Positions 40,712-44,814 of a stretch of DNA of 64,000 bases are shown piece by piece. Each line of letters begins with the position of its first letter. The first letter of the stretch is position 1. The translations under genes were made by a program, and so were the position numbers. The stretch covers positions 1,120,001 through 1,184,000 of the forward strand of contig CBDCYI010000005.1 in NCBI GenBank assembly GCA_965224085.1. Direction: 5' to 3'. The stretch comes from Candidatus Marinacidobacterales bacterium. GTDB taxonomy: Bacteria; Acidobacteriota; Vicinamibacteria; Marinacidobacterales; SMYC01. Under the pieces are notes generated by a model, which had not been told where the DNA came from, did not search any database, and saw only the letters and a program-made list of their open reading frames with translations.

Positions 40712-42058
40712 ATGGATTTCCTGAAGAGCTTCCTTCCAGCGCCCGTCGTAGACGTTCTGCTGGTCATCATCGTCGTCTACGTCGCCATCAAGAAAGGGAT
40801 CCAAAAGCTTCAGGACACTGGCCACTGGGACCGCCTCCTCGAAAAGCTTCCCGGGGCCGAGCAGCTCCAGCTTCGGCGCTTCGAGGGGGAGATCAAACGG
40901 CTCGAAAAAGGGGGTGACCTCGCGGGGGCGGCACGCCTCTACGAAGAGGCGGAGTGGTACCCCGAGGCCATCAACATGTATATCCAAGCCGAGGAATACA
41001 ATTCCGCCGCCGCGCTCCACGAGGAGCTCGAGCAGTGGGAGCGCGCGGCCGACATGTACTTCCAAGGAGAAGATTGGAAACGCGCTGCGCAAATGCTCGT
41101 GAAAGTCGGCAAACATGCTGAAGCTGCCAAACACTACGAGCAGCACGGACAGAAGATCGACGCCGCCAAGCTCTACTTCGACGCAGCTCTCTACGACAAA
41201 GCCGCCGAGCTCTACGAAGACGTCTCCTATTTTCCGCAAGCCGCGAAGTGCTTCGAGAAGCTCGGGGAACATGTCAAAGCAGCCCAGAACTACGAGCAGC
41301 AGTGGTCAGCATCGAGTTCCGCTGGAGGTGGGGGGCTCATCGCCGCAGGCTCCGATCGAGAATCCAGGATCGCCCTGCACGCGGGAAAGCTCTACGAGAA
41401 AGGTGGCGCGCCCGAGCGGGCCGCCGAGCTCTACAAGCGAGCCGGTCTCTCGCAGCAGGCGGCGGAGCTCGCCGCCAAGGAGGGTCGCTACCTGGACGCC
41501 GCGGAGATGCTCCTCAAAGAGGAGAACCTGAAAGGCGCGGCCGAGATGTTCGAAAAAGCCGGTAAGAACGAGCGGGCGGCCCTATTGCACGGAGAGATCG
41601 CCTTTCACGCCGGAGATAACGCCGCGGCCGCCGACCATTTCCTCAAAGGCGGTGACAATCCGCGTGCCGCGGAGCTCTACGAATCCGTGGGCGATCTGGA
41701 AGGGGCCGCGCGATGCTATGAGAAAGGCGACGCGCCTCTACAAGCGGCAGGGGTTTATCTGCGTGCTGGCGAGAAACAAAAAGCCGCTGTGATGTTTGAG
41801 GAAGGGGGCGACCGCGAGCAGGCCGCGAAGCTCTACGACGAGATCAAGGACTACTCGAAGGCCTCTGAGCTCTACGAACAGAGCGGACGCTTTTGCGAAG
41901 CAGGCAAGCTGGCAAAGCAGCAAGGCGACGGCGACCGCGCCATTCAGCTGCTGCAGCAGATCGACGGAAGCCACGATCACTATGACGACGCCACGCTCGT
42001 GCTAGCGCGCTTGTTCATCGAGAAGAACATGCCCGCGCTCGCCGTGGACAAGCTCGAG
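40712..42058 (+). pseudogene. 5' part (TM + TPR-like repeats) of a TPR-Ser/Thr kinase gene interrupted by IS110
   Basis: AAxLYE repeats; frame continues at 43744 once the IS is removed (DKLE|RLLGG). Confidence 0.85.
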
Positions 42059-42144
42059 TGATGGGATGGACTCCTCCGCTGACATAGACGGCATCGATGT
42101 GCCAAAGTCAGTCGAAAGAACGCATCGAAAAAGGAGGAGTCCGA

Positions 42145-43179
42145 ATGAAAGATACGACGATCGCTGTGGATCTTGCAAAGAACGTCTTCGAGATTGCCAT
42201 CTCGCGCGAAGCGGGGAAGGTGTCCAAGCAACTCCGTGTGAGTCGACCCAAGTTGGTGTCGTTTTTTGCGAAACAGAGCGCTGCCACCGTGCTTCTTGAA
42301 GCCTGCGGCTCGGCTCACTTCTGGGCAAGGACGTTGCAACGGTTGGGACACGACGTCGTCCTGCTCCCACCTCACCTCGTAAGGCCGTATCGACGCGGGA
42401 GCAAGAACGACCGCGCGGACACCAAAGCTTTGCTCGAGGCTTACCGGAACGAGGAGATTCTTTCGGTGCCCATCAAGTCCGTGCGCCAGCACACCCTCGC
42501 CGCGCTCCATCGCCTACGCTCAGGATGGCTCTCCACACGGACCGCACGCATCAATGCCGTACGCGGGATCCTGCGCGAGCTCGGACTCTTCATCCCCAAG
42601 GGCGCTCACTTCGTCGTGCCCGCCATCTCCGAGCTCGTCGAAGACGCTGATTCTGATTTGCCCGACGTGCTCCGTCCGCACCTGCGTGATGCGTGCTCCG
42701 AGATTCGAGAGCTCAAGGACAAGTGCGCTGGCATCGAGCACGAGCTCAAGGCGCTCGCCAAGCAGCTTCCTGAGGTGCAACGACTTCTCACCATTCCCGG
42801 CATCGGACTTCTGACCGCGACCGCCATCGTCGGCTTCGTTGGGGATCTGCGCCGCTTCCCATCGGGACGCCGCTTCTCGAGTTACCTCGGCCTCGTTCCC
42901 AAAGAGAACTCCAGTGGTGACATTCGCCGCCTCGGGCGCATCACCAAGCGTGGCGACTCCTACCTCCGTACGCTCCTCACGCAGGGCGGACGCGCCGTGC
43001 TCCGAGCGGCCAACGTCAGCAAGAGCCCGCCCGACAAGCTCCGCGCCTGGGCGCGGAAGGTCCACCGCTCGCGGGGACACAACAAAGCCGCGATTGCTGT
43101 CGCCAACAAACTCGCCCGGATAGTCTGGGCCGTCTCCACCCGCGAGAGTGAATTCCAGTCGGTGCCCGCGGCCGCATAG
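42145..43179 (+). CDS. IS110 DEDD recombinase/transposase
   Basis: AVDLAK, LEACG, KNDRAD, IPGIG, ENSSG, AVANKLAR; AGGAGG RBS. Confidence 0.95.
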   Translation: MKDTTIAVDLAKNVFEIAISREAGKVSKQLRVSRPKLVSFFAKQSAATVLLEACGSAHFWARTLQRLGHDVVLLPPHLVRPYRRGSKNDRADTKALLEAYRNEEILSVPIKSVRQHTLAALHRLRSGWLSTRTARINAVRGILRELGLFIPKGAHFVVPAISELVEDADSDLPDVLRPHLRDACSEIRELKDKCAGIEHELKALAKQLPEVQRLLTIPGIGLLTATAIVGFVGDLRRFPSGRRFSSYLGLVPKENSSGDIRRLGRITKRGDSYLRTLLTQGGRAVLRAANVSKSPPDKLRAWARKVHRSRGHNKAAIAVANKLARIVWAVSTRESEFQSVPAAA

Positions 43180-43243
43180 AGGCTCCACTTTCGTGTTTTC
43201 CTTCTTCCCTTCCAACAGAGGCTGCGACGATACCCATCCAACT

Positions 43244-43587
43244 GATGGCGTACCGGTCGGACCGGCGCGGGGTCAAGCCGATAGCAACACTGGCCCTCAG
43301 AGGTCGCTCAAAGTGATTGGCTCCTCGCGCGCGGATTTTCCGTCATGGCCCGGAGCACCCAAGACGCTCCTCACTGAGGCCGTAGATATGTTTGCAGTCT
43401 GACCCACTCGTCACCGATGGCGTACCGGTCGGACCGGCGCGGGGTCAAGCCGATAGCAACACTGGCCCTCAGAGGTCGCTCAAAGTGATTGGCTCCTCGC
43501 GCGCGGATTTTCCGTCATGGCCCGGAGCACCCAAGACGCTCCTCACTGAGGCCGTAGATATGTTTGCAGTCTGACCCACTCGTCACC
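43244..43587 (+). ncRNA. Two identical tandem 172-nt bridge/seek-RNA-like units (43244-43415, 43416-43587)
   Basis: Located in the 3' NCR; segments match the target flank (TAGCAAC) and the circle junction (AGATATG, TTCCGTCAT); exact RNA ends unknown. Confidence 0.75.
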
Positions 43588-43605
43588 GATTTGGACGAGC
43601 AGCTC

Positions 43606-43743
43606 TGAGGAAGACTTTTTTGAGAAAGGTGTTGATTGAGGAGTCCAGATATGAGGAAGACTTTTTTGAGAAAGGTGTTGATTGAGGAGTCCAGATATGA
43701 GGAAGACTTTTTTGAGAAAGGTGTTGATTGAGGAGTCCAGATA
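43606..43743 (+). repeat. Three exact copies of the 46-bp IS right end
   Basis: TGAGGAAGACTTTTTTGAGAAAGGTGTTGATTGAGGAGTCCAGATA x3 without spacers. Confidence 0.95.
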
Positions 43744-44814
43744 CGGTTGCTAGGTGGCCTACAAATCAGCGGCAAGACCCTCGAGCACTTCTACTGTCTT
43801 GGACGCGCTTTCGAAGAACTCGGCAAGACATCCCAGGCGATCGACACATTCCGGAAAGTGCTGACCGAGCGCTACGGCTACGAGGATGTGGAGCAGCGTA
43901 TCGCCCGTTTGAGCGCACTTGGCGCCGACGCCGAGCCGCCGACCCAAGCGGCTCCTCCGACCCAACCCGCACCTCCTTCGGCCCAACCCGCACCTCCTGC
44001 GGCTCCTCCGGCCCAACCCGCACCTCCTGCGGCACCCGTCGTGCCGCGGCAAGCAGAAGCGTCGTCTCCTATTAAGCTCGGCGAGCTTCTTGGAAAGGGG
44101 CTTCTCGGAACCACCCACAAAGGAATCGATACCCGCAATCAGAGCCCCGTCATCGTCAAGCTTCTACGCCAGGACCTGATCGCAAACCAGAGCATCCTGC
44201 AGCAGTTCATCGCGGAGGCCAAGCTCGCCCGAAGCCTCGAACATCCGATTCTCGTCCGCTTGCTCGGCCTCATCCAAGTTCGCGGCACGCGGGCCGCCGT
44301 CACGGAGTACGTGGACGGGTTCAGCTTGTCCACGTTCCTCGAGCGCAATAAACGCGTTTCGGTCAAACAGGGGATGGATCTTCTTACTACATTGGCAGCC
44401 GCGATCAATTACGCGCATGATAGAAAACTCCTTCATCGTGATTTGAAGCTCACCAACATCTTGATCGGAGCGAGCGGAAAGCTCAAGCTCACCGGGTTCG
44501 GCATGGGCGCGCTGAGGGTGGCTCAGCTCGGAAGAGCGGATGGCTACCCGGCCCCGGAGTTTCTGAGCGGCGCCGCCATCGGCCCTCGATCCGACATCTA
44601 CTCCCTGGGCGCCGTCATCTTCCACGCCTTAACGGGCGACAACCCAGCGAGCGAAGAGGCCTCCAAGAACGGGGTGCCGCCGCTCCGACAGCTATGTCCC
44701 GACGCGTCTGCGACATTCGAGCAAGTTCTCGCGCGTTGCCTCACAAACGACCCCGCCGGCCGCTTCGCGTCAGCTCAAGAAGTTATCGTCGCTCTCCAAG
44801 CCGCCCCTGCCTAG
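43744..44814 (+). pseudogene. 3' part of the interrupted gene: TPR, Pro/Ala repeat linker, Ser/Thr kinase-like domain
   Basis: LGKGLLG, VIVK, HRDLKLTN, TGFG in place of DFG, APE, SDIYSLG. Confidence 0.85.

Follow-up and report, generated by a model that had tools for sequence, protein, structure and literature searches.

The 64,000-nucleotide stretch analysed here (the window) comes from the genome of a 'Candidatus Marinacidobacterales' bacterium (contig CBDCYI010000005.1, positions 1,120,001 to 1,184,000 of the forward strand; G000:C5:1120001-1184000 in our numbering), which comprises 6.87 Mb in 12 contigs. At 42059-43743 on the plus strand it carries an insertion sequence of the IS1111 group that splits a gene with a TPR-repeat part and a Ser/Thr protein-kinase part. 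With 1,685 nt this copy is longer than the canonical copies (about 1,421-1,424 nt), and its non-coding region 3' of the recombinase/transposase gene (tnp) measures 564 nt, compared with about 302 nt in canonical copies. Two exact repeats were identified in this region with Tandem Repeats Finder, one at 43244-43590 (period 172, 2.0 copies, 100% matches, 0 indels) and one at 43606-43743 (period 46, 3.0 copies, 100% matches). Judged from its conservation and structure, the 172-nt unit is the whole gene of a bridge/seek RNA with a predicted length of about 170-180 nt; the 46-nt unit carries the right end of the element. We consider it fairly probable that the whole RNA gene and the right end were expanded locally, as recent and probably neutral by-products of recombination. 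The element boundaries were set from eight other copies and from the empty sites in genomes G001-G003. The features of the locus are listed below; bit scores refer to R1, a covariance model built from an alignment of 16 related RNA regions (A1).

40712-44814, plus strand: host gene split by the element, TPR-repeat part at 40712-42058 and Ser/Thr protein-kinase part at 43744-44814, in frame without the element.
42053-42058, plus strand: left target flank CTCGAG, off-consensus (canonical TCAAG).
42059-42077, plus strand: left end of the element, consisting of TG (42059-60), the 7-nt extension ATGGGAT (42061-67) and the subterminal inverted repeat GGACTCCTCC (42068-77).
42145-43179, plus strand: DEDD recombinase/transposase gene, 344 aa, intact, no stop or frameshift, first catalytic-type aspartate (D9) kept.
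43244-43415, plus strand: 172-nt unit 1, putative complete bridge/seek RNA gene, beginning at the left-end mimic TGATGG (43243-48), 156.6 bits.
43416-43587, plus strand: 172-nt unit 2, identical second putative RNA gene (100% identity in Tandem Repeats Finder), 150.9 bits.
43606-51, 43652-97 and 43698-743, plus strand: three identical 46-nt right-end units, each opening with TG and carrying GAGGAGTCC and AGATA.
43744-43752, plus strand: right target flank CG-GTTGCTA; CG belongs to the target, and GTTGCTA pairs with the 5' target guide one base out of register.

The recombinase gene is preceded by AAAGGAGGAG. Its product matches the Pfam families DEDD_Tnp_IS110 (PF01548, 4.4e-11) and Transposase_20 (PF02371, 9.7e-26), which places it in the IS110 superfamily. 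The C-terminal motif GL-P----SG has been described for the IS1111 group (PMC11187229), and GLVPKENSSG in the 344-aa protein fits it in the form GL-P----S(t)G; the protein size also lies within the 330-350 aa of this group. The element starts with TG-ATGGGAT-GGACTCCTCC and finishes with GAGGAGTCC-AGATA. Its left end is the same in all full copies and conserved in relatives. The subterminal inverted repeats, GGACTCCTC (within 42068-42077) and GAGGAGTCC (43730-43738), are located 9 nt and 5 nt inside the ends and are likewise conserved in relatives; their length of 9 bp falls into the range of 7-17 bp known for IS1111 elements. The initial annotation, made from the letters of the sequence alone, had proposed an IS1111-type element with a guide RNA in its 3' non-coding region. 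The Pfam matches, the subterminal repeats, the long 3' region and the conserved, covarying RNA described below support this assignment.

BLAST analysis of the genome revealed eight further full-length copies and about ten fragments. Seven of the eight align end to end with a canonical form of 1,423 nt, and one is cut at position 1393. Both the 172-nt unit and the 46-nt unit are single in all eight. A 22-mer spanning the 172-nt junction occurs once in the 31 genomes searched and the junction of the 46-nt units twice, in every case at the window locus. R1 finds 17 RNA genes in the genome of the window, against nine full elements, and of the 55 genomes searched in the order, 8 contain matches, 91 in all (G000 17, G002 7, G003 4, G010 25, G012 4, G013 2, G025 1 and G032 31). 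Among these 91 matches the window pair is the only one spaced 172 nt. Other close pairs lie 284-475 nt apart in G010 and G032 and 483-810 nt apart in G000, and they repeat a larger module, which consists of the tnp tail or the non-coding region together with its own right end; four such modules stand in a row in G010 (L033). The unpublished genome G027 was counted in the empty-site, junction and R1 tallies, and no claim depends on it. The two identical 172-nt units behind the recombinase gene had been noticed in the initial annotation, and the exact repeat with 100% matches agrees with this. The duplication is not a feature of the family; it is peculiar to the window copy.

To a large extent the case for an RNA gene comes from relatives of the element. 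A search for related loci returned 60. The close relatives are in two 'Candidatus Marinacidobacterales' metagenome-assembled genomes; the more distant ones, with 45-63% protein identity, are from other Acidobacteriota and from a small number of further phyla. At the distant loci, DNA likeness is limited to short gene segments and to a block that starts at canonical position 1187. This block stays 72-78% identical where the transposases are only 45-50% identical, and position 1187 is the first base of the 172-nt repeat unit, within a 3-nt ambiguity. The RNAalifold consensus on A1 contains 31 pairs, 8 of them with compensatory changes. P1 is its outer stem; further stems are P3 and P4, and P6 forms a second domain. 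In P1, columns 2-8 pair with 105-111, including a compensatory change from G-C to C-G. Hairpin P5 lies inside the P4-closed loop and was formed in 19 of 19 sequences folded singly, with stems such as GGCC/GGCC, UGACC/GGUCG and GCGC/GCGC. Hairpin P7 lies inside P6, whose outer stem was formed in 17 of 18 evaluable sequences. P5 and P7 were counted from separate folds of each sequence, as their loops are misregistered in the model-based alignment A2. Because the fold of a single unit is not significant alone (z = -1.12), the case for RNA structure rests on covariation. The conserved, structured RNA with covarying stems in the non-coding region corresponds to what is expected of a seekRNA or bridge RNA. 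Folding and covariance models had been suggested as a check on the initial annotation. They yielded the covarying stems and the matches of our own R1 model, and no Rfam match above noise: a scan of 41500-44500 at E <= 10 returned only mir-1910, an L31 leader and sR4. In the predicted fold of a 360-nt tandem transcript, both copies retain the local target-loop and P6/P7 domains.

The segments of the RNA that can be read against the flanks and ends of the element are as follows.

43282-43290 (second copy 43454-43462), plus strand: 5' target guide UAGCAACAC, the complement of G-TG-TTGCTA, which is the top strand of the uninterrupted target.
43306-43315 (second copy 43478-43487), plus strand: 3' target guide GCUCAAAGUG (GCTCAAAGTG), oriented like the left flank (A)TCAAG-TG, from which it differs by an additional A.
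43338-43346, plus strand: 3' strand of P1 and possible left-donor guide UUCCGUCAU (TTCCGTCAT), pairing with A-TG-ATGGGA with two wobbles.
43384-43390, plus strand: right-donor guide candidate AGAUAUG, located 3' of P6, same sense as the right end ..CCAGATA-TG.

The P4-P5 internal loop holds both variable segments, UAGCAACAC on its 5' side and CUCAAAGUG on its 3' side. In the RNA the top-strand match comes first, followed 3' by the bottom-strand match, with an overlap at the insertion point. For 11 distinct guides, the longest exact complementary matches between the 5' guide and the cognate right flank sum to 78 nt, or 7.1 per element. Deranged pairings of guides and flanks gave a mean of 49.3 and a maximum of 62, and none of 10,000 reached 78. 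The 5' guide covaries with the target flank, as is expected of seekRNAs and bridge RNAs. Examples are UAACAACCG with CGGTTGTTA (L053), UAGCAGGG(U) with (A)CCCTGCTA (L059), UAACAGCG with CGCTGTTA (L068, L078) and UAACACCG with CGGTGTTA (L088); poorer matches of 4-5 nt were found for L064, L066, L071 and L083. Judged by eye, the 3' guide fits the left flanks only with a bulge of 1-2 nt, as in CUCA[A]AGUG/TCA-AGTG and CUG[AU]CAGCG/CTG-CAGTG in L060.

The motif positions given in the initial annotation were all correct (TAGCAAC 43282-43288, GTTGCTA 43746-43752, AGATATG 43384-43390, TTCCGTCAT 43338-43346 and GCTCAAAGTG 43306-43315). Its reading of TAGCAAC(AC) as the target guide holds, as this segment matches the TG-TTGCT flanks of other copies and the equivalent positions covary with the right flank in relatives. 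The comparison of other copies' flanks with the predicted target, which it had named as a check, gave the same answer: their flanks match the guide. AGATATG had been equated with the right end. The canonical element has this heptamer at just two places, inside the RNA gene and at the right end. In relatives the RNA segment agrees with the end of the element, AUAUA accompanying a CCATATA right end and AGAUA a CCAGATA one; this correspondence represents about two independent changes only. For TTCCGTCAT, the pairing with the left end was reproduced, and its role is ambiguous: UUCCGUCAU is inseparable from stem P1, whose 3' strand it forms opposite UGAUGG in the 5' part of the same RNA. The RNA base immediately 5' of CC in UUCCGUCAU also varies with the left-end base behind GG: U is found with G or A, G is found with C, and A is found with T.

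The other copies also define the preferred target. The left flanks of the nine copies end in CAAG (five), CGAG (three, the window copy included) or AAAG (one). Where the right end abuts host DNA, the right flank is TG-TTGCT(A) or a close variant, with one exception (C4_999, ATA|AGTAAGCTGCTAGCC). The preferred site is about (A)TCAAG-TG-TTGCTA, with the TG common to the left end of the element and the right flank. The site TCAAAG-TG-TTGCTA, which had been predicted from the guides of the window copy alone, is close to this consensus.

In three genomes of the same genus (G001, G002 and G003) the host gene is uninterrupted and presents the empty site CTCGAG|CGGTTGCTAGG (CTCGAG|CGGTTGCTA); a fourth genome (G004) gives a split match at this locus. 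The flanks in the window equal the empty site with nothing gained or lost, hence there is no target-site duplication. The left TG is the element's, the right CG is the target's, and removal of the element restores the reading frame GAG CGG TTG CTA. These empty sites and the flank pattern common to the other copies indicate site-specific insertion without target duplication, as is usual in the IS1111 group. Compared with the consensus, the window site has TCGAG for TCAAG and CG for TG at the crossover, and GTTGCTA is located one base further from the crossover. The window copy is thus an off-consensus insertion, which supports the relaxed targeting already suspected from the partial match of guide and site. 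Because a left TG with a right CG recurs in distant relatives (L053, L068, L088 and others), the family seems normally to accept either T or C in a pyrimidine-G crossover. From a mismatched core, TG/CG junction pairs are expected after replication, by inference from the IS621 strand-exchange scheme. The host-gene parts match TPR families upstream of the element and Pkinase (2.9e-37) downstream. Between them, imperfect tandem repeats of 18-30 nt at 43939-44033 encode a proline-rich, QPAPP-like linker.

How could the tandem repeats of the window copy have arisen? In the reading that we consider fairly probable, an IS1111-group element would have landed at an imperfect target inside the TPR/kinase gene, and the 3' region of this copy alone would then have expanded, the RNA gene to two units of 172 nt and the last 46 nt to three. 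In this reaction a TG/CG pseudo-site, located on a sister copy or on a second copy of the element, would be joined by the recombinase either to a right end or to the left-end mimic TGATGG; unequal exchange of that kind would duplicate the segment in between. The 46-nt array could be the result of unequal exchange between sister copies, or of self-insertion followed by homologous collapse. The 46-nt array lies inside the coordinates of the initial annotation, which mentioned neither this array nor the right-end rearrangements described below; both point to a by-product of recombination.

The genome of the window contains seven distinct types of junction at which internal element sequence follows a complete right end. 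In canonical numbering they are located at 631, 855, 1042, 1344, 1378, 1393 and 1405, and 1378 corresponds to the 46-nt unit. In the parent sequence of all seven junction types a TG stands directly 5' of the joined part, and six of the seven keep the order right end-TG-X. For the 46-nt unit the joint is CCAGATA-TG-AGGAAG and the internal parent site CTC-TG-AGGAAG. All four distinct right-end junctions in G010 are at a parental TG (two) or CG (two), and the CG junctions retain CG after the right end, as in the window insertion. Right-end-proximal tandem duplications of 41, 29 and 19 nt were found at two other loci of the window genome. Because right-end arrays recur in this genome and in two related genomes with TG/CG crossovers, the 46-nt array looks recombinase-made, and such an origin appears well supported.

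For the 172-nt repeat, a recombinase origin is only weakly suggested. Its junction, ..GTCACCGA|TGGCGTACC.., joins the parents CAC-CG-ATTTGG and AAC-TG-ATGGCG, which have only GAT in common and in which a pyrimidine-G followed by AT (YG-AT) stands at the crossover. TGATGG is present in the element only at the left end, as its first six bases, and at the first base of the 172-nt unit, which makes it the sole internal copy. We also considered the end of the 172-nt unit as a right-end-like GTCACCGATTTG (compared with GTCCAGATATG) joined to the left-end mimic, as in circle formation. This was rejected, since it predicts ..GATT-TG-ATGG.. and ..CACCGATGG.. is observed.

Several points weigh against a recombinase-driven expansion as described above. 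The 172-nt junction does not contain a right end, and with its 3-nt GAT microhomology, slippage or illegitimate recombination explains it equally well. One right-end junction, at position 1393 (CCAGATA|AGAAAGG), lacks TG, and the pseudo-sites resemble the guide-specified target in little beyond the dinucleotide. The role of TTCCGTCAT as donor guide is plausible and confounded with stem P1. No sigma-70-like promoter was found at 42000-43800 in a scan that is uninformative for an acidobacterium. Contigs of the RNA-library run X16 cover only parts of 42057-42940 at a depth of 2-3, and this non-coverage is not evidence of absence; one X16 contig bears another copy's flank, and the X16 contigs are possibly DNA carry-over and uninformative on the guide RNA. 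Finally, the support from sequencing runs consists of Logan contigs of four runs, with no joint among the pieces listed, and the depth in run X1 (see below) is indirect.

Transcription may reach both copies. Because no sigma-70-type promoter was found in the element and the only promoter noted for ISEc11 is one formed at the circle junction (PMC11187229), the RNAs are probably processed from read-through transcripts. A single terminator-like site was predicted in 42000-43800, inside tnp on the minus strand. Both RNA copies would then be transcribed, as a duplication without new function; since the guides are identical, a second copy can contribute nothing beyond dosage. Each of the three right ends could serve circle formation, and use of an inner end would leave solo right-end units. 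Guide-matching flanks were reported as needed for circle formation by ISEc11 (PMC11187229), and because of this, a poorly matched copy like that in the window may undergo more abortive, one-sided reactions, which is speculation on our part. Nothing indicates selection: a single copy has the arrangement, and its insertion at an off-consensus site inactivates a host gene.

A further-reaching version of the recombinase reading assigns the cause to the RNA gene itself. Because the guide RNA reads the element ends, the DNA of its gene must mimic them. The mimics TGATGG and AGATATG might then act as internal half-sites, by which the element would duplicate its own guide gene and right end in place; the window repeats and the module arrays of two related genomes would be instances of this. 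We hold this to be a tentative and rather doubtful idea. If true, it would represent a natural, recombinase-driven route to spare guide genes, which could later diverge and gain new target specificities.

Alternatively, the repeats could be real and result from processes of the host, namely slippage during replication or unequal exchange between microhomologous stretches, with the recombinase uninvolved. The absence of a right end from the 172-nt junction, where only GAT is shared, fits this explanation. YGAT occurs 13 times in the 1,423-nt element, so that a chance meeting is not rare, and TTTTTTGA|ACGAGG, another junction in the window genome, is also away from the element ends. It does not account for the 46-nt units, which are joined precisely at the natural cleavage point of the right end, nor for the TG or CG at the crossover in the parents of 7/7 and 4/4 right-end junction types in G000 and G010; the opening of the 172-nt unit at the only internal TGATGG also argues against it. 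We regard host processes as an unlikely sole cause.

It also has to be considered that the assembler looped the repeats too often, in which case the 172-nt unit and the 46-nt unit would each be present once at the real locus. The tandem arrangement is shown by only one assembly, the element is multi-copy, which complicates assembly, and the pieces listed from the runs include no joint. At least 20 listed runs from 11 studies, sponge or sponge-metagenome by label, hold part of the stretch, and 15 hold half or more of the sampled words. The Logan contigs of runs X1 and X3 extend from the left flank 24 nt into the element at single-copy depths of 7.3 and 15.3, and an X1 contig continues from the right end into the right flank. 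The genome may have been assembled from the X1 sample. In X1 the bin 43374-43440, which holds the 172-nt junction, has a depth of 7.94, compared with 7.3-7.6 in the flanks, and the preceding bin has 0, a hint of a junction-specific unitig at single-copy depth. Nine full copies and fragments are resolved within megabase-size contigs, which argues that the repeats were spanned, and four other right-end tandem duplications with different junctions elsewhere in this genome, as well as similar module arrays in two other genomes, make the arrangement more credible. Assemblers usually collapse exact tandem repeats and do not expand them. A search of a metagenome contig collection for the duplication junction gave no match; a canonical-sequence control also gave none, hence the result is uninformative. 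Taken together, the repeat is confirmed in the assembly and has indirect support from the runs, and we judge an assembly artefact to be quite improbable.

The proposal of the initial annotation that a duplicated guide cassette raises RNA dosage, permits reprogramming or is the first step to a multi-guide array, and was selected for this, finds some backing in the two complete RNA genes in tandem, in the target-loop domain kept by both copies in the predicted tandem fold, and in the arrays of RNA-plus-right-end modules in G010 (four in a row) and G032, but it is very improbable, since the units are 100% identical and show no reprogramming, the arrangement is restricted to one of nine full copies and to no other of the 55 genomes searched, without a sign of spread or selection, and the copy is located at an off-consensus, gene-disrupting site.

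Similar elements have been described. The window element resembles the IS1111 seekRNA elements ISEc11, ISPa11 and ISKpn4, as presented by Siddiquee et al. (2024, PMC11187229), in its DEDD transposase of about 340 aa with GL-P----SG, its subterminal repeats, the 7-nt left extension, the long non-coding region 3' of tnp and the lack of target duplication. For IS1111 seekRNAs a top-strand match 5' of the bottom-strand match, overlapping at the insertion point, is reported, and the predicted RNA of the window element shows the same order and overlap (PMC11187229). In contrast to these elements, the window copy is found in a sponge-associated acidobacterium and has two RNA genes and three right ends; the likeness was drawn from the description of the elements, not from their scaffold sequence. 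The bridge RNA of IS621 and the IS110 group (Durrant et al. 2024, PMC11208160) is also a structured non-coding RNA which guides the recombinase, with an internal loop that reads both target strands around a short core and segments that match the ends. According to the same report, 93% of IS1111 elements have a predicted bridge RNA in their right end. In the IS110 group, unlike in the window element, the RNA is located upstream of the gene and the guide order is reversed (PMC11208160). Compared with IS621, the window element has TG at the crossover with CG tolerated, and donor recognition is less clear, as the candidate left-donor guide doubles as a stem.

A preprint of August 2026 (10.64898/2026.08.14.744561) describes tandem non-coding repeat units beside IS110 transposases (n = 468 in a legend). 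According to this preprint, the matches retained at the unit boundaries are nearly all half matches to the left donor, and its authors propose half-site reactions that are resolved in place. The repeat in the window fits this picture, with tandem non-coding units next to a transposase, one-sided donor matches and the resident recombinase as proposed origin. The survey, as described there, is statistical, covers large cargo-bearing loci in ten bacterial species and does not equate the unit with a whole guide-RNA gene, whereas in the window the 172-nt unit appears to coincide exactly with the RNA gene and the 46-nt unit is the right end. In Pseudomonas putida, ISPpu9 is accompanied by a separable downstream small-RNA gene, ssr9, with extra copies that lack the transposase gene (PMC12288879), which is similar to the 17 RNA genes and nine full elements in the genome of the window. 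Ssr9 is reported there to be unneeded for transposition and to move as its own minicircle, in contrast to the extra RNA gene in the window, which is an in-place tandem copy that lacks a right end of its own. Earlier work has thus already described the element family, its RNA and the tandem expansion of non-coding units, and the biological novelty is modest.

The element is a natural IS1111-type example from outside the usual model bacteria, with target guides that are readable and can be checked against many copies and relatives. Its off-target insertion shows tolerance of a CG core and of a one-base shift. For the engineering of bridge/seek recombinases, the TG/CG right-end arrays and the duplication at a left-end mimic would be field evidence for half-site side reactions. 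The same features hint at a possible origin of spare guide genes; in the window copy the second unit does not differ from the first and is probably neutral.

Some further observations were made on the copies and their surroundings. At three loci of the window genome, C9:514400-517400 (minus strand), C9:651750-653900 (plus) and C4:1230750-1233050 (plus), a full element is followed by 5'-truncated copies and right-end fragments of 31, 21 and 48 nt, and one RNA gene in these arrays is interrupted by a 72-nt insert in the target loop. In G010 (OZ250169.1; L033, L041, L042 and L048) and at G032:C3:3315209-3315672, tandem modules of non-coding region plus right end stand behind a full element, with up to four RNA genes in a row and junctions at TG or CG. 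At C11:839600-839800 (minus) of the window genome the tail of a diverged relative stands behind a full copy. It is joined at ..CCAGATATG|CAGCTCTGACC.., the expected place of the RNA gene's AGATATG right-end mimic.

The recombinase of the other eight copies carries D9G in two cases, W60* in one and a frameshift in one, and looks intact in four. The damaged genes belong to four of the nine full copies (C4_33, C4_1283, C5_627 and C11_839); the frameshift lies near residue 307, and the RNA gene is kept at full model score in all four copies. In run X3 a 4-nt deletion of CGGT at 43744-43747 gives the junction CCAGATA-TGCTAGG, which may be a strain variant of the same insertion.

The canonical left flank is part of an 18-nt motif, GGTGCTTCCGCCATCAAG, which is present at 63 loci of the window genome with <=3 mismatches (e.g., in the left flanks of copies C4_33, C9_651 and C4_1230). 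It is always followed by a TG/TGTTGG-like sequence and then by at least four unrelated continuations. The elements just past it encode a Mutator-family (IS256-like) transposase, an IS1/ISL3-like DDE protein and a reverse transcriptase. The motif is either a terminal motif common to several mobile elements or the target of all of them. That it marks the beginning of a gene family, read as ATGGCGGAAGCACC from the opposite strand, was considered and rejected, as the open reading frames there are short and unrelated. In the left flank of L034 (OZ250169.1) the target motif is directly duplicated, GCTTCCGCCATCAAGT GCTTCCGCCATCAAG, just ahead of the element.

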